Below, piece after piece: positions 10,274 through 29,060 of a DNA stretch of 64,000 nt; positions within the stretch are counted from its first letter, which is position 1; each line of letters opens with the position of its first letter. The notes below the pieces were generated by a model. That model was not told the origin of the DNA, ran no database searches, and saw nothing but the letters and a program-made list of their open reading frames with translations. A program made the translations under genes and the position numbers. The DNA is from Patescibacteria group bacterium (GTDB lineage: Bacteria; Patescibacteriota; Dojkabacteria; GCA-002793355). The DNA lies in NCBI GenBank assembly GCA_016860985.1, contig BOKM01000001.1, forward strand, positions 463,462 through 527,461, in the 5' to 3' direction.

Positions 10274-10293
10274 ATTGGACCAATTGTTCAAAG

Positions 10294-10699
10294 TGGAGGT
10301 GAGGGGAATCGAACCCCTGTTCAGCTATTCTAAAAAAGAAGTTTCTCCCAAAACAGTCTGAGTTGTTTACGAGATTATGCCTAAAAATCAGACAAAAAAG
10401 CATAACCCGCCCACACAAATACGATTCTGGCAACTCAGCGGAACTAGCGGCCAGTCGGCATGAACTTTCTTACTCCTGGCTCTCCGCTTGTCATGCGAAG
10501 GAGGAAAAGCCAGTTACGTCGAAATTAGACGTATGAGAATTGCATTGCTGGAGAAACAGCTTTGAGGGCTGAGTTCACGAACGATGCGATTTTCTCAGAA
10601 AGGGTTTGTTTGGCACTTTATGTGCTTTGATAGTTTAACGGGATATCAGCCCGTTTGGCTACTTCTTTCAACGAACAACCGTCTAAACCGATCACCCCC
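10294..10699 (-). ncRNA. ssrA: tmRNA (SsrA), one-piece
   Basis: The minus-strand RNA begins GGGGGUGAUCGGUUUAGACGG and ends GGGGUUCGAUUCCCCUCACCUCCA. The acceptor stem GGGGGUG/CACCUCC contains a G3:U70 pair followed by discriminator A, and CCA is not encoded. A PK1-like hairpin (ACGGG/CCCGU) is present. A TGaTATAAT box (hexamer at 10716-10721) lies upstream. Confidence 0.9.
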
Positions 10700-15357: not shown

Positions 15358-16689
15358 TTATTTTTTAATCTGTGCACGAAAATCCTGTTCCATCACTTTC
15401 TTTCGATATTTGTTGGCAAAACGATGGGCTTCATCTCTAAGTTCACGCAAATGGAGGTAGCCAATATTTGATTTTTCAACTTTTGTGACTCGCCACTTAC
15501 CCTCGACCTTTTTTAGAAAAAAGTCATTTGGTTTAAAGATTCCTACGATAGGGACATTCTCAAATGGAGTACCTTTGACGGCATCAATAACAGCACCTAC
15601 TTGCCCCTTTCCACCATCGATCAGAAGCAAATCGGGTAATCGCCAGGCTCGCTTGATTCTTCGGCCTAGAATTTCTTTCATCATCCAAAAGTCCGAAATA
15701 CCTGTTGTATATTTAATTCTGAATTTTCGGTACTGATCTTTAGCTAGCTTTCCGCCCTCGCTCACAACCATAGAGCCTACAGTCCATTTTTCCATGATAT
15801 TTGAGATATCGTAGCATTCTATTCGTTCGGCGGAAGGAAGTTCCAAAAATTGCGCTATATCGTCAGCCCGCCGTTTGTACACATCCACCAAGAGGTTCGG
15901 GTTATCAACATACTGGTCAGGAAGAATACTCGCGGTTTCCAATTGATGTAACTTCGAAAGTGTATCTCTAATTTCTTTTGCTTTCTCGTAATCCTCGGTT
16001 TGCGCAAGCATCCTCATCTCTTTCTCTAGCTCCTCGATTGCGGTGGAATATCCTTTTTTTAGAAACATTTCTAAACCAAGAATATTCTTTCTATTTTCCT
16101 GATATTTAGCGATATCTCCACAGGCGCCGGTGCACAAACCAATATGCGCGTACATACAAGCTCGGTGCTGTTTTAATGATTGAGTAAGCTTGGTTTTAGG
16201 ATATTCACAATGAGGGTAAATTCGTCTTAAATGCTTTAGTACTTGGATGACGAGCGAACCATCAGGAAAAGGACCGTAAAAACGAGTCCTTTTCAAACTC
16301 CTTCCATGAACACCAAAAATTTTTGAAAATGTGTATTTCTTACCTTCGAATAAAACATCAAAATCTTGCACCGCAATATATTTATATGACTTATCGTCTT
16401 TTAACGAGATATTATAGTGTGGTTTATACCGTTTAATGAGCTCTGCTTCAAGTAAGAAGGCCTCGATTTCGGAGCGGACTTGAATAATATCGAGGTCAAC
16501 AATCTGCGACACAAGCGCTTCGGTTTTGGGACCTTTGTATGTATCTACGAAATAACTTGAAACACGATTTTTTAAGTTTTTTGCTTTACCAACATAAATA
16601 ATTTTCCGCTTTTCGTTGTAGTAAAGGTAACACCCTGCGGTGGTTGGAAGGTTGGCTAATTTTTTTTGGAGTTTTATTGAGAGTACCAC
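15358..16689 (-). CDS. uvrC: Excinuclease ABC subunit C, short form lacking the C-terminal (HhH)2 domain
   Basis: GIY-YIG ('GCYLYYNEKRKIIYVGKAKNLKNRVSSYF'), a UVR motif region, and a C-terminal endonuclease domain ('ECYDISN...DGGKGQ...RDEAHRFA'). The protein stops at 443 aa. GTG start with TATAAT 5 nt upstream. Confidence 0.88.
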   Translation of the reverse strand: MVLSIKLQKKLANLPTTAGCYLYYNEKRKIIYVGKAKNLKNRVSSYFVDTYKGPKTEALVSQIVDLDIIQVRSEIEAFLLEAELIKRYKPHYNISLKDDKSYKYIAVQDFDVLFEGKKYTFSKIFGVHGRSLKRTRFYGPFPDGSLVIQVLKHLRRIYPHCEYPKTKLTQSLKQHRACMYAHIGLCTGACGDIAKYQENRKNILGLEMFLKKGYSTAIEELEKEMRMLAQTEDYEKAKEIRDTLSKLHQLETASILPDQYVDNPNLLVDVYKRRADDIAQFLELPSAERIECYDISNIMEKWTVGSMVVSEGGKLAKDQYRKFRIKYTTGISDFWMMKEILGRRIKRAWRLPDLLLIDGGKGQVGAVIDAVKGTPFENVPIVGIFKPNDFFLKKVEGKWRVTKVEKSNIGYLHLRELRDEAHRFANKYRKKVMEQDFRAQIKK

Positions 16690-16715
16690 AGAGAATTATA
16701 CTATTTCTCAATTGT

Positions 16716-16994
16716 TTACGAATCTTCGAGTTCTTGCTTGGCTGCTTCCCAATCCATGTTTGGAGTGACTGTGATTTGCAGACTCGTTCCATCGGCATTC
16801 AGTTGCCTTACATCAGTGACAACTTTACAAATTCTGTGTGCAAACTGACAACCCACACATCCCTGATCAGCAAGCACTTTATCTATTGCTGCTGCTTCAT
16901 CGGGAAGAAAGGGTGGTTCTCCTATTCCGACTCGATGAGTATTTTCTTCATTCTCACACGGCATTTTTTCTAAAATTTCCCATTCAGTAGCCAT
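16716..16994 (-). CDS. Small acidic Cys-containing hypothetical protein
   Basis: 92-aa ORF that fills the uvrA-uvrC gap exactly on the same strand (3 nt after the uvrA stop). It contains 'GCVGC' plus two further Cys residues. No family recognised. Confidence 0.5.
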   Translation of the reverse strand: MATEWEILEKMPCENEENTHRVGIGEPPFLPDEAAAIDKVLADQGCVGCQFAHRICKVVTDVRQLNADGTSLQITVTPNMDWEAAKQELEDS

Positions 16995-16997
16995 GTT

Positions 16998-19900
16998 TTA
17001 CTCCGCAATATCTAACTCTTTAAGCATCTTACCCGTCCAACTCCTTGGATTTCGTCTAATGTCACCTATTGTGCCTGTCGCTACGATTTCTCCACCACCA
17101 GTTCCACCTTCGGGACCTAAATCGATGAGATAGTCAGCTTCCGCGATAAAGTCGAGGTTATGTTCAATTACAAAAACACTATTCCCTGTCGCAACTAAGG
17201 TTTTTAATACTGCTACCAGTTTCTCAATATCTGCAAAATGCAGACCAGTAGTTGGTTCATCAAGGATGTAGATTGTTTTACCTGTCGAACGCCTTCCAAG
17301 TTCTGCTGATAACTTCACTCTTTGTGCCTCTCCACCCGACAACATTGGGGCTGGCTCTCCAAGCTTCAAATAGCCAAGCCCTACTTGCTGAAGCATTTCG
17401 AATTTTTCTCGAATCATCGAGATTTCTGAAAAGAAAGCAGCAGCTTCATCTACCGACATATCCAACACATCTGCAATATTCTTTCCTTTGTACAACACTT
17501 CTAGAACCTCAGACACATATCGCTTACCGTGACAAACATCACAGTCAATATACACATCGGGCATAAACTGCATTTCGATCTTTATCTTACCCTCTCCTTT
17601 ACAGGCTTCACAACGACCACCTTTCAGGTTGAAACTAAAGCGACTTGCGGTGTAACCTCGCACTTTGGAATCCTTTGTTTGAGCAAAAAGTTCTCGAATA
17701 TCGTCGAAAACCTTTGTGTATGTTGCAGGATTACTTCTTGGTGTTCTACCAATTGGCGACTGATCAATGTAAAGGAGCTTGTCAATAACATCCGATACGT
17801 ATAGGTTTCTGTATTCTGTGTCGGGGCTATCTGTTCTCAGACCAAGAGTCTTTTTGATAGCAGGCAACAAGGTTTCCACCACAAGGGAGCTCTTTCCTGA
17901 ACCTGAAACACCAGTTATTGCAACAAATTTTCCGAGCGGAAACTTAACCGTTACATCTTTTAGATTGTGTGTTTTTGCCCCAGAAAGCTCTAAATACCGG
18001 TCAGCTACGCGCATTCGGGCATGTGACGCAAGAGCATCGTTTAATTTTTTGTTCTTACCAAGCCCTAACTTCACGAGTTTTTCGACTTCTTTTGCAATTG
18101 TTTTCTTACCAGCTAAGTACGGGCCAGTTACAGATTCGGGGTTGTCCATAATCTCTTTTGGCGTACCCATAGCAACGATTTTTCCTCCACGATCTCCTGC
18201 ACCCTTACCAAAATCAAGTACAAGATCTGCATTCATCATGGTATCTCTGTCGTGCTCAACAACGATCACAGTATTTCCCAAATCACGAAGATGCTTTAAT
18301 GTCGCGATTAATCGATGTTGATCTCGTGCATGCAGCCCAATCGAAGGTTCATCTAGTACGTAAATTACCCCCGAAAGGCCTGTTCCAATCTGACTCGCAA
18401 GGCGAATTCGCTGTGCTTCTCCACCAGAAAGCGTAGTTGCAGTTCTACTCACGGTTAAGTATTCAAGCCCCACGTCTAATAGAAATTGCGAACGAAGGAG
18501 GATTTCTCGAATTACTGGTTGTGCAATTGTCTGAGCTTTTGAATCAAATTCTTTAATAAATCCCTTGGTCTCATCTGTAAACTCTTTGATGGTTAAATCG
18601 CAAAGCTGGGAGATATTTAGATTATTAATGGTTACCGCAAGCACAATATCTTTAAGCCTTGTTCCTTTACAAGTTGGGCACGTAACCGTACTCATAAACT
18701 TCTCAATTTCGGTTCGAATAAAATCTGAATTTGTTTCTTTATACCTGCGCTCTAAGTTCGGAATTATCCCCTCGTATTTGGCATGAAGCGAGCGTTCTGT
18801 TCCGTCTTGGCTCGAAAAGTACGTTACTTTGTACTTTTGATCTCCCGTTCCGTAAAGAATCAGGTGTAATTTACCCTCAGTAAGCATACTCACTGGCGTA
18901 TGAATCGAAATAGTGTGTGCATCACAGACTAGTTCAAGCAACCTTCTAAAGTAAGAATCTCTCTCAAGCATTTTTGCGTACGGCATGATGCCACCTGCAA
19001 GTATCGAACGCTTTCCGTCGATAATTCCCTCTGTTGATATCTTCTTTATAACGCCAAGTCCATCACATTCAGGGCAGGCACCGTGTGGGGAATTAAAGGA
19101 AAAATCTCTAGGTTCAAGATCAGGAACAGAAATACCGCATTTTTTACAACTTTTGGTAACGCTATAATCGTGGGAAAGTACTGAGGTTGGACGAGCAGGT
19201 ATTCCCGGTTGTGGATCTCTTATTTCTAAAATTCGAACAAAGGTTGGTTGAATTTTAAGTGCGGCCTCAACTGATTGAAATATTCTTGAGCGCATTTCTT
19301 TTAGCGCTTCTTCTGAATCAAAGAGCGTTTTGCTCACACTTAAGGTGTCGACTACTACTTCTATTTCGTGTTGCTTGTACTTGTCGAGCTGTGGCAACAT
19401 TAATTTCAAGTCAATATATTCACCATCAACTCGAACAACATTCCACCCCTGTTTTCGCAAGTTCATAAATACCTGCTCATATTCACCTTTTCTTCCAGAA
19501 ATTGGAACTGCGGTAATCATAAAGCGGAACCCAAATTTTTGAGTATTTTTATCGTTTTCGTATTCGCGTTTTATCTTCTGCAATAAACCATCTACTACCT
19601 GGTCAATTGTTTGGGAGGTAAGTACCGCCCCACATTGTGGACAATGCGCAACACCGACTCTCGCGTACAACAATCGTAGGTAATCATAGATCTCGGTGAT
19701 TGTACCAACAGTCGAACGAGGATTATGTGATACCGTTTTCTGGTCAATAGCTATAGAGGGTGACAATCCTTCAATTTTATCGACATCTGGCTTACGTAGT
19801 TCACCCAAGAATTGCCTTGCATATGCAGATAAGCTCTCCACATATTTTCGCTGGCCTTCGGCATAAATGGTATCCATTGCAAGTGAGCTCTTGCCAGACC

Positions 19901-20000
19901 CCGACAAGCCAGTAAAAACAATCAACTTGTTTTTTGGGATATCGACGTCAATATTCTTGAGATTGTTCTCGCGCGCACCGCGAATCGAGAGAAAGTCCAT
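16998..20000 (-). CDS. uvrA: Excinuclease ABC subunit A
   Basis: 1000 aa. '[55 protein letters not shown]', two ABC modules and zinc-finger CxxC pairs. Confidence 0.97.
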   Translation of the reverse strand: [1000 protein letters not shown]

Positions 20001-20045: not shown

Positions 20046-20666
20046 TTATTGGACTCCGGCCTTCTTTAGCTTTGTAATCACAAAATATGTTAATGGTGTT
20101 GCCACTACTTCATATACTACTTTTACGACCCATTGAGTAAGAACCATCGTTACGATTTGTGCCGATGCTAATAGTCCTCCAAATGCGATCCCCAGAAATA
20201 AGATTGTATCTACACCTTCACCGAGCACCGTTGAGGAGATAGTTCTCAACCACAAAAACCTGCCCTTGGTCAATTCCTTGATTTTGTGCATGCTCCAAGC
20301 GTTTAAAAGAGAGCCTCCCAAATAGCCGGAAAATGAAGCAACGAGGATTCTCGGTGCTACACCTAAAATAGCATCAAAGCTGAGCTGTAAATCCCAAAAA
20401 GGAGCAGCAGGCAAGGCTTGGGCAGCAGCGATGGCAAGCACCACAATAAAGTTTGCAACAAAACCAAGTAGAATTGCGAATTTTGCTTTCTGAAATCCAA
20501 ATATCTCCGTCATTACATCTCCAATGATGTAACTTAATGGGAAAACTACTATACCAGCAGGAAGAAAAACGCCACCAAGTCCCACAATTTTTACAGCAAT
20601 TATATTGGCAGCAATCAGACAGGCAATAAATAAAGAGGTCAACCCAACAAAATAACCTGAATACAT
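20046..20666 (-). CDS. yhhQ: YhhQ/VUT-family queuosine-precursor (7-deazaguanine) transporter
   Basis: Polytopic membrane protein with 'YIIGDVMTEIFGFQKAK' and 'TVLGEGVDTILF', characteristic of DUF165/YhhQ. I chose ATG 20666; an upstream TTG at 20675 is also possible. Confidence 0.8.
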   Translation of the reverse strand: MYSGYFVGLTSLFIACLIAANIIAVKIVGLGGVFLPAGIVVFPLSYIIGDVMTEIFGFQKAKFAILLGFVANFIVVLAIAAAQALPAAPFWDLQLSFDAILGVAPRILVASFSGYLGGSLLNAWSMHKIKELTKGRFLWLRTISSTVLGEGVDTILFLGIAFGGLLASAQIVTMVLTQWVVKVVYEVVATPLTYFVITKLKKAGVQ

Positions 20667-20762
20667 AATTTGCAATCAAATTTATCTTTCTACCGATGAT
20701 ACATTAAGTTAGGCCCCCCCTCAATAGCTTGACTATGGGACCGCACTTCTTTAAAATAACGC

Positions 20763-21545
20763 ATGCGCCTTGCGATTATTGCACCAAATGCATATCTGCA
20801 GGATTTTTCAGCTTTTCATAACAACTCATACCATCTTGTTCTTGCACATCGATTCAACTCCGAGCCCGAATACCGTAGTTTTTACATTGAGCAAAGAAAG
20901 AAGACTCACAGTTTTATAATTCTTGATAACGGAGCTTGCGAACTCGGAGAGTCGATTAACAATGGCACACTACTAGAAACTGCCAGTGTCCTTCGTCCTG
21001 ACGTACTTGTTCTTCCCGACGTCTTGCATCAAAGTCAAGCAACAATTGCCAGAACAGAGAAATTCATTGAGTCCTATAAACACCAGAACAAAATAAAGTG
21101 CAAATTGATGGCAGTTGTACAGGGCAAAACAAGAAAGGAGTGGCTCTCAACATTATCTTCCTTTACCTCTAATCCATATATCGATATGATTGGGATTTCG
21201 AGTACAAACGCCGTATACCCGAAGACAAAAAACTACTATACCAGAATCAAAACACTTAGGTATTTGCATCAAAGACAACTTATAGGGAAGAAAAAAATTC
21301 ATATGCTCGGGTTAGATGACTCTGGACACTTCGAATTACGTCATTTCTCAAAATATTCCTTCATCGAAGGAGCAGATTCTAGCGCTCCAGTAGTTCATGG
21401 AGCAAAAGGGATAAAAATTTACAAGAACAAGCGTTACGAAAAGATTCGAACGTATCTACCAAGCGATGCAATCCTCACGAAGGAGCAGGTATTAGCAGTA
21501 AAAGCTAATCTGCAAGTATTTTTTGACATGGCTTCACATGAATAG
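20763..21545 (+). CDS. Minimal tRNA-guanine-transglycosylase (TGT/DpdA) superfamily-like protein
   Basis: 260 aa. Its ordered motifs 'ILDNGACE', 'AVVQGKT', 'MIGISS', 'HMLGLDD' and 'GADSSAPV' parallel the TGT motifs DSGGFQ, GIVQGG, GYAIGG, LMGVGKPDD and FDCVLPT. No C-terminal zinc subdomain is present. Confidence 0.6.
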   Translation: MRLAIIAPNAYLQDFSAFHNNSYHLVLAHRFNSEPEYRSFYIEQRKKTHSFIILDNGACELGESINNGTLLETASVLRPDVLVLPDVLHQSQATIARTEKFIESYKHQNKIKCKLMAVVQGKTRKEWLSTLSSFTSNPYIDMIGISSTNAVYPKTKNYYTRIKTLRYLHQRQLIGKKKIHMLGLDDSGHFELRHFSKYSFIEGADSSAPVVHGAKGIKIYKNKRYEKIRTYLPSDAILTKEQVLAVKANLQVFFDMASHE

Positions 21546-23292
21546 AAAAATATTTGTATCGGGCGAAGGTGCTCGAGGAGCAGGAAAAACCTCTACGTTA
21601 AATGTTCTACTGCAAGAATCTACGACTCCCACTGCTGTTAACAGGGTAGCCCCAAACATACCTACAGAGCACCTTCTTCTGATTGACACTCATAAAGCGA
21701 CAAGCCCGTTTCACAAGAGAGCGCTCGAAATACATAAACAGTGGGAAGAAGCCGTCAAAACCCCAGGTGAAGGTGCAGAGCGATTATCATGGAAAAAGTT
21801 TGAGCTCGGAATACTACAGCTACGGTATGAATCCGACAGCTATCACGACGCAACTAGCAAAGCGGAGCAAATTTTTCTCGATAGAGATATTGATACAGCT
21901 GTCGTATACTCTGCAGCAGAGATTATTTTATCCAATCCTCACAAATACGATTCGGTACGTTCGCATATTGCGCTACTACACAATCTATGGCAGAAAGTAT
22001 ATTCAGTATGCCAGACAAACGACTGGGACGTGAGCACTTTTCCACACCTTGATACCGAAGATGATGTCTTATCATTAGTTGATTTTTTAAAACAACAACC
22101 CTTAAGGGATATACCCACTAATACCTTTTACTTCTTTACAAAAGATAAGACTGAATCACTAAAAAGGAGCCACACTTTACGTATAGACACTGCACTCGAA
22201 TACAATCTCACCGTAGTACAGCAAGCAACACAAGATATTATCCAACCATTGTACCTCTATTCCTTTCTCATCCGAAAACAATTATTCCCTGAGGCGCAAG
22301 TTCATTATCTCTCTTCAGATGCGCACAACATCAAAGAGCTCGCGAATTTGGTAAAACTACATGTTAATACGACGACGCTTGAGGTTCCAGGCGCAGACCA
22401 TATCCCCGTTAAGCTACGAATACCTTTTAACAAAGACCACTCCCTACCCTCATCCATTGAGACGCTTAGCCAAGTAATATTCGAAAGCACTGTTGGATCA
22501 ACCTTCCCAAGCAAACGAGAAGTACACATTAATGGAGAATCAAATTGTGTTTACAACAATAAGGCACTGTACGAATACGCATCATTACTAGGACTTGGCC
22601 ACATTGAATTCGTCCAAATTCAACGAGAGACATTCTCTGAAACTTGTCCTGTCCACTGGGCGTGTATTGAGTGGCTTACTCCCCAAAGAGATACTGCACG
22701 AATAATTGATCTGACACCTTTTAGAATTAAGCCCTACATTTCCCAACCTTGTAAAGTTACACACAATGGGGATACATACCAACTGACCTCGCTCACACAA
22801 CAGCCTATTGAATTTACTCAAGTAAAGAAAGAAACGTCATTAATTCCAGAAAGAGCCATGGAATTCGCCTATAACGTTGAATATACTTTCCAGGAAGAAT
22901 CGTTACAAGCATTAACACGTGAGGGATATGAATTGTTAGGCCAATCAAACAACGAATCGCAGAATATATTTTTAACTATTAGGTTAGGAAGATTGTTGCA
23001 GAAACAGGAACGCATCCAAGAGGCAGTCGAATTGCTTGAGCGAGCAGTGACCACTTTCCCGCAAAATCTTATACTTGCCAGGGAAGTTGCAAAGTATGTC
23101 ATTGATGGGTACATTAAATTCGTACCACCGTATTTTTATACTTACCTCAGTAACGCAAACCAGATTCTTGAACGAACTACCCAAACAATGCGAGAACATG
23201 ATATTGATGAAACTGAAATCAATGCGTATTATGAGTATAGGAAATTTATTCCACATGCACTTAAGTTAATCACCGAAGAACATGAAAGTTGA
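21538..23292 (+). CDS. Multidomain protein: TMPK/dNK-like P-loop, transglutaminase-like Cys-His-Asp core, TPR-like tail
   Basis: 'IFVSGEGARGAGKTST' and 'LDRDIDTAVVYS' resemble thymidylate kinase motifs. 'NCVYNN..LLGLG..HWACIEWL..IIDLT' resembles a transglutaminase-like core. The C-terminus is helical-repeat-like. ATG 21538 overlaps the upstream TAG by 8 nt. Confidence 0.55.
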   Translation: MNRKIFVSGEGARGAGKTSTLNVLLQESTTPTAVNRVAPNIPTEHLLLIDTHKATSPFHKRALEIHKQWEEAVKTPGEGAERLSWKKFELGILQLRYESDSYHDATSKAEQIFLDRDIDTAVVYSAAEIILSNPHKYDSVRSHIALLHNLWQKVYSVCQTNDWDVSTFPHLDTEDDVLSLVDFLKQQPLRDIPTNTFYFFTKDKTESLKRSHTLRIDTALEYNLTVVQQATQDIIQPLYLYSFLIRKQLFPEAQVHYLSSDAHNIKELANLVKLHVNTTTLEVPGADHIPVKLRIPFNKDHSLPSSIETLSQVIFESTVGSTFPSKREVHINGESNCVYNNKALYEYASLLGLGHIEFVQIQRETFSETCPVHWACIEWLTPQRDTARIIDLTPFRIKPYISQPCKVTHNGDTYQLTSLTQQPIEFTQVKKETSLIPERAMEFAYNVEYTFQEESLQALTREGYELLGQSNNESQNIFLTIRLGRLLQKQERIQEAVELLERAVTTFPQNLILAREVAKYVIDGYIKFVPPYFYTYLSNANQILERTTQTMREHDIDETEINAYYEYRKFIPHALKLITEEHES

Positions 23293-23794
23293 TCAAGCAA
23301 AACTTGGAGTAGGTACAATCTGTTACCTACACTCAAACGACTCTTACTTACTAGGCGAAAAAAAGTACGGTGGCGCACAAGGTAAAGTTAATGGGTTTGG
23401 TGGCAAGATCGAAACGACAGACCAATCAATCTATGATGCAGTTAAGAGGGAATTTCGTGAAGAAACATCAATCCAACTCAACGCACCCAAGTATTGTGGC
23501 ATTATCGAAATTTTTAAGAACGAGACGAGAAAAGCAATTTTTTATCTGTTTAAAGCAGATGACTTTATCGGCCAACCTCAAGAATCTGAGGAGATGAAAG
23601 TGTACTGGGTGAAAAATACTGAGGTCCCTTTCGAAAAAATGTGGGCATCAGATGCATTATGGCTTCCACTCTTTCTTAAAAATGACAATATACGTGTAAA
23701 ACTTTATTTTCAGGAAGGCAATGACAAAGCAGATCGAATGGAAGTAACCTTTAATGCGACTCTAGATGAAACATATCACGAAAACTTTATCTAA
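23282..23794 (+). CDS. Nudix hydrolase, MTH1/NUDT1-like
   Basis: Nudix box 'GFGGKIETTDQSIYDAVKREFREETSI'. 'NGFGGK', 'ESEEMKVYW', 'PFEKMWASDALWLPLFL' and the rest of the length align with human MTH1. It overlaps the upstream gene by 11 nt. Confidence 0.8.
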   Translation: MKVDQAKLGVGTICYLHSNDSYLLGEKKYGGAQGKVNGFGGKIETTDQSIYDAVKREFREETSIQLNAPKYCGIIEIFKNETRKAIFYLFKADDFIGQPQESEEMKVYWVKNTEVPFEKMWASDALWLPLFLKNDNIRVKLYFQEGNDKADRMEVTFNATLDETYHENFI

Positions 23795-24668
23795 GGTTCC
23801 ATCCTATTTGATAGAAACTATTGAGAAGGAATCTATTCCCTACCTCGAGCAAGTTCGTGTAAAGGAATATTCTAAACGTCTTCCACCACTTGAAGGGCAA
23901 AGAGTTGCAGTAATCCCTTGGAGTGGTGGGTTAGACTCAACAACCAGTCTTATCATGGCGATAGAAGCAGGCATCTCAATCAGGACCATATTTCTGAATT
24001 ACGGACAACCTTACATAAAGAAAGAATTGCTCGCAACCAATAAGTTAGAAAAACTGATACGCGCAAAATATCCGGAAGCAGATTGGACCGAGCATTACAT
24101 AGTCGATGTGAGCTTCATAGACCAGCTTGTGAAATCGAAATTCAACGGAGAATGGGGACATATTTTCCCAATGCGTAACTTTCTCATCCTTGAAGAATCA
24201 GCCGCGATAGCACAACCAAATAGATACACAGAAGTTTGGTTTAGCAGTGTGCAAGGAGAAATGCCTTATTCAGGAGGAGACAAGAGTGTGGTATTTCTCA
24301 CCTATATGAAAGAAATTTTTGGAAAACGGAATATTAATTTAACCACGCCGCTCGTCGGCCTCACAAAGGCAGATATGGTTCAATGGGCTATTGCCCAACT
24401 AGATAGGTTCCGTATTATTCGACATACGATATCCTGCTTCAACGGAGAAGGAGATTCCCACTGTGGTGAATGTCAAGCTTGTTTCAATCGTGCAGTAGCA
24501 TTTTTCGCTGCAAATCAACTCCCACTTAGCGGAGTCCCTTACCACAAAAACGCATTGCAAAATTTTGGAGAAAATTATATTCGTAAACTTGCTAAAGAAA
24601 GTTATTACTCCCCAACAAGAAGAAGCCAGTTACAGCAGTTCATAAACTTTATAAGCCAACAAACATGA
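23766..24668 (+). CDS. QueC-like PP-loop ATPase (7-cyano-7-deazaguanine synthase family)
   Basis: 'VAVIPWSGGLDSTTS' PP-loop, 'NYGQ', 'TTPLVGLTKADM' and the zinc motif 'SCFNG...HCGECQACFNR' parallel E. coli QueC. It carries about 45 extra N-terminal residues. It overlaps the upstream gene by 29 nt. Confidence 0.8.
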   Translation: MKHITKTLSKVPSYLIETIEKESIPYLEQVRVKEYSKRLPPLEGQRVAVIPWSGGLDSTTSLIMAIEAGISIRTIFLNYGQPYIKKELLATNKLEKLIRAKYPEADWTEHYIVDVSFIDQLVKSKFNGEWGHIFPMRNFLILEESAAIAQPNRYTEVWFSSVQGEMPYSGGDKSVVFLTYMKEIFGKRNINLTTPLVGLTKADMVQWAIAQLDRFRIIRHTISCFNGEGDSHCGECQACFNRAVAFFAANQLPLSGVPYHKNALQNFGENYIRKLAKESYYSPTRRSQLQQFINFISQQT

Positions 24669-25534
24669 TTAGCTTTGTTATACCCTCTTATCAGCGAGCA
24701 GACGGTGCAATCTTTATGATACTTAATTTGTTGCACCAAACAGTTTTCACAAAATATCCAACAGAACTAATACTGTCTATTGATGAAACTGATACCCAAA
24801 AAGAATTGTATGCAAACTACATCATTCAAGCAAAAAAAATTGCGCAAGAAATCGTACCTGCATGTAACATATCACTCCTGGTTAATCAGACAAAAGGCTT
24901 AGTCGCAGCAAAGAATAACGCTGTGCGAGCTTCTAAATACGAGTTCATCATGATGCTCGATGATGATCTTGCTGCAGTAGATAATTACGTTGAAGCCTTG
25001 TTAGCCGACATGAAGGCTGCCCCTTCAGTAGGTGCTATTTCAGGATTTATAGTTTCATACCTTTCTGCTATATCTCACACTCAACCCTCCGATTTCATTG
25101 AAGAGGTACCTAAGGAATCGCATCTACAGACACTAAAACTGGACTCCAACAATGGTGCTTGGAGAACATTTTTCGGCAAGAAAGAGCAGGTCATGGATTG
25201 GAGTAGAATCAATAAGAATATTCCTTCTACGGTTCGCTATACCATGGACTATTTTGTCAATTCGTATCTCTTTAGAAGAAGCGCATACAACAAAATAGGT
25301 GGATACTCAAATGATTTAAATTCTAAGACATCTGCCCACGAGGAGGTCGATTTCACTTATAGAATGAGAAAAGCTGGCTACCAACTTCTTTTTAATCCAT
25401 TTGTCCAGATGTGGCATATTACCGTCGGCCACGGAGGTATCTACAAAGGAGCAGATTACAATGAGAGTAAAGAAATCTTAGAAAAAGAGTATAAAGAAAG
25501 TATACCTCTATTTGTTCAGTCGATTTCCAGGTAG
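24665..25534 (+). CDS. Glycosyltransferase family 2
   Basis: 'SFVIPSYQRADG' and 'IMMLDDDL' (DxD) match a GT2 fold. The start overlaps the upstream stop as ATGA. Confidence 0.75.
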   Translation: MISFVIPSYQRADGAIFMILNLLHQTVFTKYPTELILSIDETDTQKELYANYIIQAKKIAQEIVPACNISLLVNQTKGLVAAKNNAVRASKYEFIMMLDDDLAAVDNYVEALLADMKAAPSVGAISGFIVSYLSAISHTQPSDFIEEVPKESHLQTLKLDSNNGAWRTFFGKKEQVMDWSRINKNIPSTVRYTMDYFVNSYLFRRSAYNKIGGYSNDLNSKTSAHEEVDFTYRMRKAGYQLLFNPFVQMWHITVGHGGIYKGADYNESKEILEKEYKESIPLFVQSISR

Positions 25535-25577: not shown

Positions 25578-26372
25578 ATGAAATCCCCGTATGTTCAGGG
25601 TTTGAAACAGGGGTTCGCCGAACTTTCAGTCTACTCTCTCGATTTCCTGTTTGGGTTATTCCAAGCAGTTGCGCTTGTCGGCTTTGAAATACTCCTGTGG
25701 ACTTTTGTCCTCCCTGCTGATAACCAAACTGCCCTATTTGAACGCACCTCTTATTTTTTGCTAGCCAATGGCATTGCCTTGGTAATCGGAGGTGCCCGAT
25801 ATCGCTTTGCCAGAGATTTATCACTCGTCATCAAAGAGGGAACGTTGTCGCACTACCTTCTTAAACCGATTAATCCTGTACTTTACATCTATTCAGAACA
25901 TGTTGGAGGAAAAGGACCAGATTTTATGATCGGATTAATTTTTATAATCATGGGAACTTTGTGGATACCGACCTTTACGCTCGTTAAGCTACCATTGTTG
26001 TTGATAACGCTGGCTGCAGCTCTCATAAATACAATCTCACTAAACGTTATCGCAGGGGCTGTAGCCTTTTGGACAACCGAGGCAAACGGTATTAAGAATG
26101 CCTTTGCGCAAACAACGCGATTATTTAACGGACAGCAAGTTCCCATCAATCTTTTCATGGAAATGATCAGTCCTTTTTGGGCGCAATTCTTGTATATTCT
26201 CCCCTTCGCAAGTGTTGCATATACGCCAACGCACATAGTTATTGCCAAAACATTCGACGCAATAGATTTTAGATTTATCATCGCTTCGATTATCTGGGCG
26301 TTCATTCTCCCGTTACTCGCAACACTAATTTGGAATAGAGGACTCAAACGATATGAGGGGACTGGTCTCTAA
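25578..26372 (+). CDS. ABC-2 type transporter permease
   Basis: 264 aa with about 6 TM segments, in an ABC-2 (DUF990-like) permease pair followed by an ATPase. TGtTAAACT box at 25560-25568. Confidence 0.65.
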   Translation: MKSPYVQGLKQGFAELSVYSLDFLFGLFQAVALVGFEILLWTFVLPADNQTALFERTSYFLLANGIALVIGGARYRFARDLSLVIKEGTLSHYLLKPINPVLYIYSEHVGGKGPDFMIGLIFIIMGTLWIPTFTLVKLPLLLITLAAALINTISLNVIAGAVAFWTTEANGIKNAFAQTTRLFNGQQVPINLFMEMISPFWAQFLYILPFASVAYTPTHIVIAKTFDAIDFRFIIASIIWAFILPLLATLIWNRGLKRYEGTGL

Positions 26373-27171
26373 CCTACGATTCTACTTTCGAGTACTTGCA
26401 AAAAAGATTTTGTTTGCCTGGCAGATAGAAACGGCTTACGCAGGGAACACGATAGGTGAGCTTTTTTCAACCATTTTTTACAACATTACCTTTATTATTT
26501 TTATCGATATTGTACTGCGAAAATATAAGCTGCTCGCTGGCTACTCTTTCAACGATATGCTGGTACTTGTTTTTGTGACACAGATTGTATTCTATACAGG
26601 ACTAACTATTACTTACGATAGCATGTCAAAATTCGTACAATCTGTAAGAGATGGTATTTTTGATACGTACCTTCTCAAACCGATGTCTGTTTTCTTTCAA
26701 GTGATGACCTTAAGCATCAGGCCGTTTTCTGGGCTGTTCTTTTCTGTTCCACCATTGCTAATTTATGTAGTGCTCATCATTAAAAATCAAGCATTTCATC
26801 CCGAACCTTTTGGGCTAACGGTTGGCTTACTTGGAATGTTGGTTGGGATTCTCTACCTTCATTTTTATCGATTTACGTTTGCGATGTTCGTGTTTAAAAC
26901 AAAACAGGTAAAAAACCTACTCAAAACACTTGACCTACTTGGGGATGCTGGATCTTTTCCCTACGAGGCTTATGTTGAACCGTTTAGAACAATTGTCTTT
27001 TTTATTGCGCCATTTCTTGCTGCGGCTGCCATTCCTGCAACCTACTTCTTAAACAAAACGACTTCTCTTTGGCCATTTGTTATTCAGATTGGACTCATGC
27101 TATTTTTTATGACTACTGCACTACTTTTATGGAGAAAAGGATTAAAAGAATATGAATCAATTTCATCTTAA
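26353..27171 (+). CDS. ABC-2 type transporter permease
   Basis: 272-aa polytopic paralogue-like partner. It overlaps the upstream permease gene by 20 nt. Confidence 0.65.
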   Translation: MRGLVSNLRFYFRVLAKKILFAWQIETAYAGNTIGELFSTIFYNITFIIFIDIVLRKYKLLAGYSFNDMLVLVFVTQIVFYTGLTITYDSMSKFVQSVRDGIFDTYLLKPMSVFFQVMTLSIRPFSGLFFSVPPLLIYVVLIIKNQAFHPEPFGLTVGLLGMLVGILYLHFYRFTFAMFVFKTKQVKNLLKTLDLLGDAGSFPYEAYVEPFRTIVFFIAPFLAAAAIPATYFLNKTTSLWPFVIQIGLMLFFMTTALLLWRKGLKEYESISS

Positions 27172-27186
27172 TTATTCACCCCTATT

Positions 27187-28170
27187 ATGAAACCAGTTAT
27201 CACTACACAAAACCTCAAAAAGGATTTTCTTGTTCCTGCACGACAGTCATTTTGGCAAAGACTGTTTACTCCAAAATACGAAGAAGTCACGGCTGTCGAC
27301 AACATTTCTTTTCACATTATGGAAGGCGAATCTGTTGCACTTCTTGGACCGAATGGCGCGGGCAAAACAACAACCATGAAAATGATGACCGGCATACTTT
27401 ATCCAACAGCCGGAAGTTGCAATGTGCTTGGATACAACCCTAATAAACGCAACCCTGCGATGCTTAAAAACATTGGCTTTGTAATGGGCAATAAAAGCAC
27501 GCTTTCTATGGACCTTTCCCCTATGCAAAACTACGAGCTTAACAGAGTTATTTACGATATTGATGCCACAAGATTTTATAACACGATAGACGAACTTGGG
27601 GAACTTCTTGAGGTAAAAGATCATTTATATAAACAAACACGAAAACTCTCGCTTGGACAAAGAATGAAAGCGGAAATGATAAACTCGATACTACACAGAC
27701 CGAAGATTCTCTTTCTAGACGAACCGACCATTGGACTAGACATCTCCTCTCAGAACAATATTCGCACATTTCTTAAAAAAGTTAACAAAGAGCTAGGAAC
27801 GACGATTATCCTTACGAGCCACAATATGGAAGATATTTCACAAGTTTCTGAAAGAGTACTTATAATCAATCAAGGCAAACTCGTTTACGACAACTCTCTC
27901 GAAATGCTGAAGCGGACTTTTTCAACAAAAAAATACATCAAGGTTATTGTTACAACAAAAGGAAACTCCCGCTCCTTTGAGAAAAAGTTTAAGCCATTTG
28001 GTGACATTGTCAGCTCTGGTAAAGATTTCGTGACGCTCGAAATTGATAAAAACAGACAGGCACCCATTATTGCAGCAATACTCAACATGGAGCACGTTCA
28101 TGATATCGATATTGAGGGGGTACCACTCACAAAAATCATAGAATCGATTTTCAAGAAAAAACTTGATTAG
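27187..28170 (+). CDS. ABC transporter ATP-binding protein
   Basis: Walker A 'GPNGAGKTTT', signature 'LSLGQRMK' and Walker B 'ILFLDEPTIGLD'. Confidence 0.92.
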   Translation: MKPVITTQNLKKDFLVPARQSFWQRLFTPKYEEVTAVDNISFHIMEGESVALLGPNGAGKTTTMKMMTGILYPTAGSCNVLGYNPNKRNPAMLKNIGFVMGNKSTLSMDLSPMQNYELNRVIYDIDATRFYNTIDELGELLEVKDHLYKQTRKLSLGQRMKAEMINSILHRPKILFLDEPTIGLDISSQNNIRTFLKKVNKELGTTIILTSHNMEDISQVSERVLIINQGKLVYDNSLEMLKRTFSTKKYIKVIVTTKGNSRSFEKKFKPFGDIVSSGKDFVTLEIDKNRQAPIIAAILNMEHVHDIDIEGVPLTKIIESIFKKKLD

Positions 28171-28178
28171 GTTACGTA

Positions 28179-29060
28179 TTACTTTGTTACTTGCAGTGTT
28201 TTCATAACCGAATCACAAATGGCGATGTACGACGCATCGATTGAACAATACGCACTAAACCAAATGTCCTTATTGTAGGTTAAGGCGGGTGAAGCACAAG
28301 GCGATGTAGTCGCATCAGAAATAACAGGTTCTGTGCACTCTTTCCCACTCGAGAGAGAAGAAGGCGTCACATACGCAACAGCAAAGCTGTAGCTACCCGA
28401 ATTACCAAATACCTTTTTAGAACGAACTCTTTTTAAATCCTTAATTGATGAACTCACATTGGTTAGTGATGAGTAACCCTGAATTTCATACAACTCATAA
28501 GGGAGGTTAAACGCCATAAAGGCCTTCGTTCCCTTTCGTAAGAGAATGCCATTCCAGGTCCCAATTTTTGTTTCTGATACCGTCACATCTGCCGGCAATT
28601 TCATAGTAAAAGTGAGTGTAAAACTACCCTCCCACTCTTTAATTTTGGCCGTCTTTGTTACTGTAGATGCGGTGGCAGTCGGGGTTGGCGTTGAGGTTGC
28701 AGAAGGTGTTGGAGATTCTGTTGGTGTATCAGAAACCGAAGGAGTCACACTCTCGGTTGGGGTAGGTGTGACGGTCACAGTAGGAGTTGGAGTCAATGGT
28801 GTTGGTGTTTTTTGTTTGCCGGCATAAAAGCCCAAAGCGGAGGCGAGTGCAATAAGCGCGACTACTAGGCCAATTATCAATCCTTTTGATAATGACTGCG
28901 ATTGCACTTGAGGCTCAATCTGCGGCTGGCTATCTAACTGAACGCCTTCTGCATTTGCTTCAGGCATATTTGTTGGCTGTGAAATTTCCATAATGAAGAG
29001 TAGCGCGAATTTTCGAATCTGTAAAATGAAATGCCTCTGGCGAAAATTCGCGCAAAACAT
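28179..29060 (-). CDS. Membrane-anchored surface protein with Thr/Pro-rich linker
   Basis: TM segment 'LIIGLVVALIALASALGFYAG', then 'TPTPLTPTPTVTVTPTPTESVTPS...STPTPTATAS', then a ~150-aa globular C-terminal domain. An alternative start is ATG 28991. Confidence 0.65.
   Translation of the reverse strand: MFCANFRQRHFILQIRKFALLFIMEISQPTNMPEANAEGVQLDSQPQIEPQVQSQSLSKGLIIGLVVALIALASALGFYAGKQKTPTPLTPTPTVTVTPTPTESVTPSVSDTPTESPTPSATSTPTPTATASTVTKTAKIKEWEGSFTLTFTMKLPADVTVSETKIGTWNGILLRKGTKAFMAFNLPYELYEIQGYSSLTNVSSSIKDLKRVRSKKVFGNSGSYSFAVAYVTPSSLSSGKECTEPVISDATTSPCASPALTYNKDIWFSAYCSIDASYIAICDSVMKTLQVTK

Follow-up and report, generated by a model that had tools for sequence, protein, structure and literature searches.

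Five genes lie divergent from a YhhQ-type transporter gene in the window (the whole 64-kb stretch of Patescibacteria DNA analysed here), and the question they raise is what their products make and in which molecule it ends up. The cassette fits none of the known clusters (queuosine, archaeosine, Dpd, CBASS-IV/Qat, deazapurine-antibiotic) and is undescribed; the preliminary description of this locus had already found no match to queuosine, archaeosine, Dpd and toyocamycin/tubercidin gene sets, and that claim held up. Our leading interpretation, to which we assign a probability of roughly 45%, is that the operon starts from a 7-deazaguanine base and makes a deoxyguanosine analogue, modified and probably glycosylated, which reaches DNA via the nucleotide pool. 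All of the chemistry in this proposal is inferred, only the family assignments being established.

The operon consists of five plus-strand open reading frames without any gap between genes (20763-25534; Table 1). All four junctions overlap, by 8, 11, 29 and 4 nt in order, confirming the layout described earlier, and the five genes form one translationally coupled operon. For the second gene, ATG 21538 is favoured over the upstream TTG 21523 because the start calls of orthologues agree with it. The promoter candidate ends 5 nt before ATG 20763 and scores 10/12, the joint top score in the region, shared among three sites. The region holds 18 promoter-like sites compared with 14.5 ± 4.1 expected from shuffles, that is, no enrichment, and the promoter is therefore plausible but not shown: the position of the TAAAAT box noticed previously stands, but it gains no statistical support. 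If used, this spacing would imply a leaderless or near-leaderless transcript, an inference from a consensus match alone.

Table 1. Features of the five-gene cassette and its divergent neighbour (window coordinates).
Feature	Coordinates	Strand	Length	Basis or remark
YhhQ/Vut_1-type 7-deazaguanine precursor transporter	20046-20675	-		divergent from operon; PF02592 E 1.9e-49
Candidate sigma-70-like promoter, TTGACT-17-TAAAAT	20729-20757	+		consensus match only
ORF 1, DpdA3-like guanine transglycosylase	20763-21545	+	260 aa	minimal TGT/DpdA TIM barrel, no Zn subdomain
ORF 2, orphan protein	21538-23292	+	584 aa	counted from ATG 21538
ORF 2 N-terminus, thymidylate-kinase-family (TMPK) P-loop nucleotide kinase domain	21538-22182	+		residues 1-215
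ORF 2 middle, candidate Cys-His-Asp catalytic domain	22405-22857	+		residues 290-440; fold unverified
ORF 2 C-terminus, TPR-like helical-repeat domain	22858-23292	+		
ORF 3, MTH1/NUDT1-type Nudix purine (d)NTP pyrophosphohydrolase	23282-23794	+	170 aa	PDB and conserved-residue comparison
ORF 4, non-canonical QueC-family ATP pyrophosphatase	23766-24668	+	300 aa	PF06508 E 6.8e-24
ORF 5, soluble GT2 (GT-A, DDD motif) glycosyltransferase	24665-25534	+	289 aa	PF00535 E 1.5e-10

The same five genes occur in unchanged order in 11 independent Patescibacteria-type contigs, the first protein being 34-85% identical to that of the window. This recurrence exceeds chance, and a lack of conserved gene order, which would have refuted the preliminary description, is not what is seen. 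The cassette is limited to a few Patescibacteria lineages. Its neighbours are housekeeping genes (uvrA, uvrB, uvrC, tyrS) rather than a defence island, the first protein has no PADLOC match, and neither the orphan 584-aa protein nor the GT2 clade was found in IMG/VR.

The link to 7-deazaguanine comes from the supply genes and the QueC-family enzyme. The transporter scores 118.9 bits against TIGR00697, 'queuosine precursor transporter' (cut-off 50.95), in line with its earlier assignment as YhhQ-type. Its gene is divergent from and adjacent to the cassette in the window and in contigs L001, L002 and L069; overall, yhhQ stands ahead of the five genes in four contigs, and queD-queE take that place in two. 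The yhhQ gene is an accessory supply gene that is swapped for queD-queE in some lineages, and the label 'salvage-type' applies to the yhhQ-bearing version but not to the two lineages with queD-queE in its place. Since the same five genes follow yhhQ or queD-queE in these contigs and a QueC-family enzyme is present in all cassettes, the module is tied to 7-deazaguanine supply. In the 64-kb window, phmmer searches seeded with phage and CPR sequences yielded no FolE, QueD, QueE or QueF homologue, in agreement with the earlier statement on folE, queD and queE, and no canonical TGT motif is found in the window.

The link to DNA rests on the first protein, with proposed catalytic residues D55, D86 and D205. 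DpdA is its sole PDB profile match, and it is closer to DpdA than to TGT, while remaining below every threshold of the Pfam TGT/DpdA profiles. The TGT/DpdA fold is confirmed, and the original TGT-superfamily-like call can be refined to the phage DpdA3 subfamily. At 260 residues compared with 413 for DpdA, the protein is ~150 residues shorter and lacks the extra nucleic-acid-binding elements and the Zn subdomain of TGT and DpdA. Its nearest relatives are phage DpdA3 proteins, with which it shares 26-31% identity over about 80-90% of its length, the same length, the absence of a Zn subdomain and the invariant residues D55, H180, G183 and D205. Beyond the CPR versions, which form their own monophyletic clade, the only relatives are DpdA3-like and reside on phage genomes and on phage-like or short metagenomic contigs. 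On this grouping, the target is more likely DNA or deoxynucleotides than tRNA. DpdA3 received its name from work on phages in which deazaguanines replace 100% of G; its activity has never been shown, and its discoverers favour post-replicative insertion over a nucleotide route (PMC10516641). The phage systems and the cassette both have linked CDG/preQ0 supply genes. By comparison, the cassette is cellular, has no adjacent DNA polymerase (DNA polymerase A being the usual dpdA3 neighbour in 47 phage loci), and adds the MTH1-type Nudix, the non-canonical QueC, the GT2 and the orphan kinase/Cys-His-Asp/TPR protein. None of the finishing enzymes known from the phages (DpdL, DpdM, DpdN) came to notice within the cassette or next to it, although a search was made for DpdN alone and covered the window plus the first loci retrieved.

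The link to free nucleotides comes from the second and third proteins. The 584-aa protein is an orphan confined to this cassette. Its N-terminal domain matches thymidylate kinases (profile E 1.7e-8), with P-loop, DR and LID-type motifs intact. The middle domain has no match in PDB or Pfam; N336-C337, H373-W374 and D391 are invariant in 13 orthologues, and a low-confidence structure model places the Cys at a helix N-terminus and the His and Asp on successive strands. The label 'transglutaminase-like' thus rests only on the invariant Cys/His/Asp and predicted secondary structure, and remains unverified. The Nudix protein matches zebrafish MTH1 (E 9.7e-24) and human MTH1 (about 8e-20), whereas bacterial MutT reaches only about 1e-6; the Nudix box and the counterparts of MTH1 N33, W117 and D120 are invariant, and D119 is substituted. 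The only known substrates of both the MTH1-type NTP pyrophosphohydrolase and TMPK families are free nucleotides, and the Nudix and TMPK-family domain, whose genes are coupled translationally to that of the transglycosylase, are found in every complete cassette seen, which supports a free-nucleotide step.

The two remaining enzymes indicate base and side-chain chemistry. The QueC-like protein matches QueC 2pg3 (E 3.5e-12) but scores only 69 bits against TIGR00364 (cut-off 150). It retains the PP-loop and Zn site, has lost the YPDC substrate motif and carries conserved N- and C-terminal extensions and a remodelled substrate pocket; it is not a canonical preQ0 synthase. Conservation within the cassette is highest for the GT2 (mean column identity 66%). 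This protein matches TAGT, a family of DNA-base glycosyltransferases (PF20691), at 29.8 bits (gathering score 27.5), and 5 of 6 orthologues match that family; the similarity is marginal, and generic GT2 matches are stronger. This conservation and the TAGT match underlie the proposed glycosylation. The initial TMPK-like, MTH1-type (E 1e-23), QueC-like and GT2 calls are all borne out.

In the pathway we propose, the base would be imported by YhhQ in some lineages and synthesized by QueD/QueE in others, and the QueC-like enzyme would activate the 7-carboxyl group of CDG to give an amide, a nitrile or a link to another amine. The Nudix enzyme would produce the monophosphate from a purine (d)NTP, which is probably dGTP, and the DpdA3-type transglycosylase would swap guanine for the deazaguanine base, perhaps on dGMP or on DNA. 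The kinase domain would then rephosphorylate the modified monophosphate to a form that a polymerase accepts, and the Cys-His-Asp domain and GT2 may elaborate the side chain, the sugar coming from GT2. Phage T4 makes glucosyl-hydroxymethylcytosine with the dCTPase gp56, the dCMP hydroxymethylase gp42, the dNMP kinase gp1 and alpha/beta-glucosyltransferases. The cassette would follow a similar logic, co-encoding an NTP pyrophosphatase, a base-altering enzyme at the monophosphate level, a dedicated NMP kinase and a glycosyltransferase; the MazZ/PurZ route of Z-genomes is analogous to that of T4. The resemblance is an analogy from established knowledge: no enzyme is homologous, the base is guanine rather than cytosine or adenine, and the cassette would exchange the whole base through a TGT-fold enzyme. 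As in the cassette, a P-loop nucleotide kinase and an NTP phosphohydrolase lie beside dpdA3 in two phages, CP220 (an HD + AAA_33 protein and an AAA_28 kinase) and immuto (a MazG-like PRA-PH and an AAA_28 kinase), these enzymes being analogous but non-homologous to those of the cassette. Against the nucleotide route, most of the 47 phage loci have no kinase or NTPase near dpdA3, and we know of no TGT-fold enzyme that acts on a mononucleotide. For a cellular genome, replacing G wholesale would be an extreme case. Furthermore, no acceptor for the sugar is evident, CDG, ADG and preQ0 have no hydroxyl group, and the model leaves unexplained what the two domains fused to the kinase domain do.

A purely post-replicative system, in which the DpdA3-like enzyme acts on duplex DNA itself to replace G with deazaguanine, the QueC-like, Cys-His-Asp and GT2 activities finish the base in the DNA, and the Nudix and kinase sanitise or recycle turnover nucleotides, is the strongest competitor, although we consider it unlikely. 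In favour of this system, the DNA insertase DpdA gives the nearest match by structure and profile, sanitising the nucleotide pool is the classical role of MTH1-type enzymes, and a basic pI of 8.1-9.5 is seen in 7 of the 9 CPR-clade proteins. It leaves the invariant, translationally coupled dNMP-kinase-type domain unexplained, however; with one nucleotide as their shared substrate, a kinase and a pyrophosphatase would amount to a futile cycle, and the truncated enzyme lacks the elements with which DpdA and TGT bind nucleic acid. In the Dpd island (dpdA-dpdK), preQ0 is inserted by DpdA/DpdB and ADG is made by DpdC, whereas no dpdB, dpdC or helicase/nuclease gene (dpdD-K) lies within 10 kb of the cassette. 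Somewhat less probable is that the operon makes a glycosylated 7-deazapurine nucleoside or nucleotide that stays free, for instance as a metabolite, a signal or an envelope precursor, with the TGT-fold protein exchanging the base of a nucleotide, the kinase and Nudix setting its phosphorylation state and the GT2 glycosylating a small molecule. Nudix, kinase and glycosyltransferase enzymes are typical tailoring enzymes of deazapurine pathways, a Nudix serving in that of tubercidin. Precedents include a glycosyltransferase acting on a preQ0 derivative (huimycin) and QueC homologues serving as amide ligases (roseomycin; 10.64898/2026.04.15.718813), and QueC-like proteins have been linked to nucleoside 2-deoxyribosyltransferases and purine salvage (PMC13082051). 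Yet the toyocamycin/tubercidin, huimycin and roseomycin clusters belong to actinomycetes, use phosphoribosyltransferases instead of a TGT/DpdA-fold enzyme and carry GT1/GT4-type glycosyltransferases (PF13439) rather than a GT2; relatives of the first protein lie in phage DNA-replication modules, and secondary metabolism would be unusual at a genome size of about 1 Mb.

Modification of tRNA (or rRNA), with a salvaged deazaguanine inserted in RNA and glycosylated by the GT2 as a CPR-specific queuosine substitute, appears improbable. YhhQ is a known preQ0/preQ1 importer for tRNA queuosine salvage, vertebrate tRNA queuosine is galactosylated by the GT2-family enzyme B3GNTL1, and the lack of a canonical tgt is compatible with this idea as far as the window, not the whole genome, goes. 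The first protein is nevertheless nearer DpdA than TGT and misses the Zn subdomain and C-terminal tRNA-binding elements of TGTs, and no queA, queG or queF is present for building a glycosylatable side chain; its homologues come from phages with modified DNA, not tRNA (PMC10516641). Least credible of all is protein deazaguanylation as in type IV CBASS (Cap9/Cap10) or QatBC, which also co-encode a QueC-family enzyme with a TGT-fold protein; in such a system, CDG would be joined by the QueC-like enzyme to an amine on a protein, and the 584-aa protein would be the target or an effector. The cassette has no CD-NTase, effector, QatA, QatB or QatD, none of its five proteins starts with the M(G/S)G(G/S)GG or Gly2 conjugation site, Cap10 is outscored by DpdA and TGTs, and the housekeeping setting and missing PADLOC match described above also argue against it.

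If the nucleotide-pool reading is true, the cassette would represent a cellular pathway for 7-deazaguanine hypermodification of DNA, with steps in the nucleotide pool and T4-like logic, in a CPR bacterium with a tiny genome.

An open reading frame scan matched the gene map of the preliminary description exactly. The five plus-strand genes of the cassette overlap, in order, by 8, 11, 29 and 4 nt, and the divergent gene beside them passes the NCBIfam equivalog for 'queuosine precursor transporter'. The –10-like TAAAAT proposed 5 nt ahead of the first ATG is present as part of TTGACT-17-TAAAAT, an intergenic match whose score is the joint highest of the region, but matches of this kind show no enrichment over shuffled sequence. 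As this candidate –10 box lies so close to the start codon and no Shine–Dalgarno sequence is visible ahead of the first ATG (20729–20763), the predicted operon mRNA may be leaderless. The cassette proteins are deposited under 'Patescibacteria group bacterium' as MFZ6022071–75, with the NCBI names hypothetical, hypothetical, 8-oxo-dGTP diphosphatase, 7-cyano-7-deazaguanine synthase and GT2.

Features of the cassette and its surroundings (window numbering)
Feature	Position	Strand	Assignment
tmRNA gene	10291–10699	–	Rfam RF00023, 92 bits
Upstream DNA-repair genes	15358–20000		uvrC, uvrA
Transporter gene	20046–20675	–	Vut_1/YhhQ, PF02592 E 1.9e-49
Candidate promoter	20729–20757		TTGACT-17-TAAAAT
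Protein 1 gene	20763–21545	+	260 aa, ORF scan
Protein 2 gene	21538–23292	+	584 aa, ORF scan
Protein 3 gene	23282–23794	+	170 aa, ORF scan
Protein 4 gene	23766–24668	+	300 aa, ORF scan
Protein 5 gene	24665–25534	+	289 aa, ORF scan
ABC2-type transporter operon	25578–28170		
Thr/Pro-rich protein gene	28179–29060	–	293 aa
Downstream DNA-repair gene	31203–33257		uvrB

The window comes from the chromosome of a Patescibacteria (CPR) MAG, as indicated by its tmRNA gene, uvrA/B/C and the NCBI MAG annotation. DNA-repair genes flank the cassette both here and in L001, another contig fetched for comparison (uvrC and uvrA upstream, uvrB downstream), and mutL, uvrB and an OGG-type glycosylase gene lie near it in a further contig, L003. 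In a genome of 1 Mb such a neighbourhood might arise by chance, or it might reflect a functional connection to DNA. The ABC2-type transporter operon past the cassette is not kept beside it in other lineages. The protein encoded after that operon is predicted to have a single membrane anchor, contains a long repeat rich in Thr and Pro (TPTPTV...) and is probably a surface protein.

Conservation of the gene neighbourhood in relatives, which the preliminary description had left to be checked, was found. An unchanged order of the five genes is seen in 11 contigs (the window, a close relative, L001, L002, L003, L008, L009, the partial L067, L068, L069 and L070), of which L008 belongs to Candidatus Daviesbacteria and L009 to Candidatus Saccharimonadia. 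In four contigs yhhQ is divergent from and adjacent to the cassette, in two queD–queE lies co-directionally and directly upstream, and in another two neither is adjacent. This alternation of the upstream gene between import (yhhQ) and synthesis (queD–queE) is the strongest evidence that the cassette consumes a deazaguanine base. Since the queD–queE version ends at CDG, we infer that CDG may be the common input, acted on by the non-canonical QueC-like enzyme. No FolE, QueD, QueE or QueF homologue occurs in the 64 kb of the window, in agreement with the absence of folE, queD and queE noted earlier, and no canonical TGT motif was found there. Protein 2 and the GT2 clade are both missing from the 2.9 million viral contigs of an IMG/VR scan, and the cassette is thus cellular. 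Protein 2 had no match in JGI metagenomes either, and a second metagenome scan returned phage-type DpdA3 only.

Pfam, NCBIfam, PADLOC and direct PDB sequence comparisons gave no match for protein 1, which reaches no TGT/DpdA model threshold; it matches only PHROG families of unknown function (phrog_19058, E 1.5e-16) and is rare (18 clusters in 5.8 billion). Its AlphaFold model is very confident (pLDDT 95.4) and forms a (beta/alpha)8 barrel that superposes on TGT/DpdA and is nearer to these than to other TIM barrels. A profile of the 55-member family has a single PDB sequence match, DpdA (E 3.9e-4), in which 'iHlLGm' and 'SiDSsaPv' align with 'vHLLGi' and 'SIDSTTPL' of DpdA, respectively. Thus, the TGT-superfamily-like assignment made from motifs alone is supported by both the barrel and the profile. 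Residues D55, N56, E60, H180, G183 and D205 are invariant across the 55 sequences, and D205 meets the expectation for the catalytic Asp nucleophile of a C-terminal D-x-x-D/S-type motif. The segment 'ILDNGA', which contains D55 and N56, resembles the TGT base-recognition motif 'DSGG' in position and composition, without a residue-level structural alignment. The chain stops shortly past the barrel, and no conserved Cys cluster corresponding to the Zn-binding CxCxxC...H subdomain exists in the 55 sequences.

A tblastn comparison of protein 1 with phage genomes recovered gp056 of Campylobacter phage CP220 (E 2e-10, 90% of the protein covered) and, in Flavobacterium phage immuto_2-6A, a protein annotated as DpdA (E 6e-9). 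Both proteins were named DpdA3 by Cui et al. 2023 (PMC10516641), a subfamily that is associated with complete G replacement by dADG, dDG or fdPreQ1 and that has never been active in a heterologous test or in vitro. The CPR homologues of protein 1 (nine compared) form a monophyletic clade separate from the phage types, with identities of 32–60% among themselves and 18–33% to 46 phage-type proteins. By isoelectric point, compared as a proxy for DNA binding, they are mostly basic and the phage proteins mostly acidic, a difference confounded by proteome-wide composition.

All the more distant homologues of protein 1 belong to replication modules of phages, together with FolE, QueD, QueE and DNA polymerase A. 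In 28 of about 50 loci, as judged by phmmer, dpdA3 directly precedes the DNA polymerase A gene or is at most two genes away from it. In these loci (IMG/VR contigs L012–L058, e.g., L012:512-1297, L016, L021 and L030), dpdA3 is part of the replication module and often has a helicase/primase gene (~480 aa) and a GroES-like gene beside it, an arrangement that hints that DpdA3 works with a dedicated polymerase. The DpdA3 phages thus encode the enzyme beside replication and deazaguanine-synthesis genes, whereas the cassette described here resides in a Patescibacteria chromosome. In CP220 (L005:6814-9307), dpdA3 is flanked by an NTP phosphohydrolase (HD + AAA_33) and an AAA_28-type nucleotide kinase, and in immuto_2-6A (L006:7222-9945) by a MazG-like PRA-PH and a kinase of the same type; both kinases are annotated as 'thymidylate kinase'. 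These enzymes, placed there independently in two phages whose G is completely substituted, are non-homologous to the Nudix and kinase of the cassette, yet of the same two kinds. A kinase or NTPase is not a general companion of dpdA3, being found only in CP220, immuto_2-6A, one other kinase locus and five dUTPase_2 loci. Because most phage dpdA3 loci lack such enzymes and DNA polymerase A dominates, the argument from the triad rests on few cases.

Several further features of the deazaguanine phages were observed. Immuto_2-6A carries a small phosphoribosyltransferase gene among its que genes. In two other loci (L063:3889-6327 and L065:447-2903), the DNA polymerase A beside dpdA3 has an N-terminal uracil-DNA-glycosylase-family domain (PF03167), a base-excision fold fused to a replicative polymerase in phages with deazaguanine pathways. 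Phage-like loci in an Eubacteriales MAG (L010:7984-14419) and a Pirellulales MAG (L011) contain canonical queC, yhhQ, dpdA3, DNA polymerase A and SNF2 helicase genes, so that a mobile element apparently has its own deazaguanine importer.

Protein 2 is an orphan three-domain family confined to the cassette. When 1.84 billion cluster representatives were searched exhaustively with HMMER, 16 matches emerged, comprising 13 full-length orthologues and fragments, and no remote relatives; a word-index search with a six-sequence alignment returned only four proteins, none of them new. The N-terminal domain aligns with TMPK through its P-loop, DR(Y) motif and PDLTFY strand and matches it in fold, and the C-terminal domain is TPR-like, so both of these earlier calls stand. 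The N-terminal domain does not reach the gathering score of PF02223 (best orthologue 22.7 bits versus 27). Its 'AYQ' base-contact motif reads 'VYAAAE', which makes thymidylate an unlikely substrate of the predicted kinase. Orthology with the AAA_28 kinases beside phage dpdA3 was rejected, as hhalign aligns only the P-loop (probability 70%); the two appear at best analogous. In the middle domain, Asn–Cys, His–Trp and Asp are invariant and the predicted topology runs from helix to strands, as in papain-like enzymes. To this extent the earlier 'transglutaminase-like' label has a basis, but neither a PDB profile search nor a Pfam scan of 13 orthologues gave a consistent match, and there is no fold match. 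The label is therefore not accepted here and remains a guess.

Protein 3 matches animal MTH1/NUDT1 at E 9.7e-24 and bacterial MutT at only about 1e-6, and is thus much nearer the former, as its description as an MTH1-type Nudix implied; its Nudix box REFxEET, with the catalytic Glu residues, is invariant. The base pocket of human MTH1 comprises N33, W117, D119 and D120. Six orthologues of protein 3 all keep the equivalents of Asn33, Trp117 and Asp120, whereas the Asp119 position is Ser or Gly in all of them ('MWASD' versus 'MWADD'). This replacement makes altered purine specificity likely, and protein 3 is predicted to be a pyrophosphohydrolase of purine (d)NTPs whose base pocket is altered.

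Protein 4 falls in the QueC family (PF06508, E 6.8e-24, 85 bits versus a threshold of 22), with its PP-loop conserved, as had been proposed, and lies far below the cut-off of the canonical QueC equivalog (TIGR00364, 69.1 versus 150.3 bits). WSGGLDS and the zinc motif C224-x8-C233-x2-C236-x2-C239 are conserved in six of six orthologues. The substrate motifs of the canonical signature, which was refined by experiment, are YxQxHxxE, VPxRN and YPDC, plus Tyr189, and Tyr131 is essential (Libby et al. 2026, PMC13082051). By comparison, protein 4 keeps FPxRN at the VPxRN position but carries YGQPY..KE, with His changed to Tyr, has GGDK in place of the essential YPDC with loss of the Tyr131 equivalent, and has Phe at the Tyr189 position. 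Conserved extensions lengthen the protein at both ends, the N-terminal one by about 45 aa and the C-terminal one by about 55 aa; an apparent sharing of the former with the QueC of phage phiSM proved to be a tblastn run-on into the adjoining ParB gene. Judged by these motifs, protein 4 is not a standard preQ0 synthase.

Protein 5, the best-conserved protein of the cassette, is a soluble GT2 enzyme whose GT-A domain carries an invariant DDD motif and passes PF00535 (41.7 bits versus 23.3), as expected from the original assignment. Its putative membership of the TET-associated DNA glycosyltransferases (TAGT) is marginal, since the model is matched at 29.8 versus 27.5 bits, over the N-terminal half only, and in five of six orthologues.

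The cassette belongs to the broad kind of DpdA-family 7-deazaguanine modification clusters. As the preliminary description held, it fits none of the known clusters: the gene sets that define the queuosine and archaeosine pathways and the Dpd island are not matched, and neither are those of the actinomycete deazapurine antibiotic clusters, such as toyocamycin and tubercidin. Membership of a Dpd island is further excluded by the neighbours of the cassette (uvrA, uvrC, an ABC transporter, tyrS and uvrB), among which dpdB, dpdC and dpdD–K do not occur beside the protein 1 gene. The defining content of type IV CBASS and Qat is likewise not met, with no CD-NTase or QatA/B/D in the 11 loci.

The family or fold of each part, their coupling and their conservation are observed; all chemistry that follows is inferred. 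MTH1-type pyrophosphatases and TMPK-type kinases are known to act only on free nucleotides. Because two invariant members of the cassette come from these families, we propose a T4-type scheme, which would be the simplest pathway giving every cassette enzyme a job, and we put the probability of a DNA-directed deazaguanine pathway with nucleotide-level steps at roughly 45%. This figure, and the weight of the alternatives, also take into account that most phage dpdA3 loci lack companion enzymes and that Cui et al., who discovered DpdA3, favour post-replicative exchange (PMC10516641). Purely post-replicative modification of DNA seems to us unlikely. A free glycosylated nucleoside or nucleotide as the end product, which would also employ the Nudix, kinase and GT2 enzymes, is a weaker possibility, set against the kinship of protein 1 with the DNA-associated DpdA3 proteins. 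The same kinship speaks against RNA as the target, which we regard as improbable. Ligation of CDG to amines is known in QueC homologues such as Cap9, QatC and RoyL, and protein deazaguanylation can be imagined on this basis; the N-terminal Gly acceptor motif is absent from the cassette proteins, which begin with MRLA, MNRK, MKVD, MKHI and MISF, and we give this idea very little credence.

The nucleotide-level scheme has a bolder form, in which a Patescibacterium, free-living or epibiotic, would replace much or all of its chromosomal guanine with a glycosylated 7-deazaguanine before replication. Here, the MTH1-type Nudix would drain dGTP to dGMP, base exchange on the mononucleotide would fall to the minimal TGT-fold enzyme, and a TMPK-type kinase dedicated to this step would bring the product back into the dNTP pool. 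We consider this form improbable. If true, it would be the first case of a TGT-family enzyme with a mononucleotide substrate and of the wholesale replacement of a base in a cell's genome, and would settle the route of DpdA3 phages to 100% replacement.

No literature linking DpdA with Nudix, or describing such a cassette in Patescibacteria, was found in the searchable library, and there is a realistic chance that the cassette may reveal new chemistry. It predicts a new glycosylated deazaguanine base, and protein 4, without the canonical substrate motif, predicts a new reaction for a QueC-family enzyme. The literature on how DpdA3 phages replace every G is divided between a modified-dGTP route and post-replicative exchange; as the cassette joins a nucleotide kinase and an NTP pyrophosphatase to a DpdA3-type enzyme, four small soluble proteins allow a direct test of the nucleotide-pool hypothesis. 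The biology of CPR bacteria depends on host and phage contact, and to our knowledge their DNA chemistry is essentially unexplored. To the phages and the bacterial Dpd restriction island from which 7-deazaguanine DNA modification is known, this cassette of the ultra-small CPR bacteria would contribute a third setting, a cellular one.
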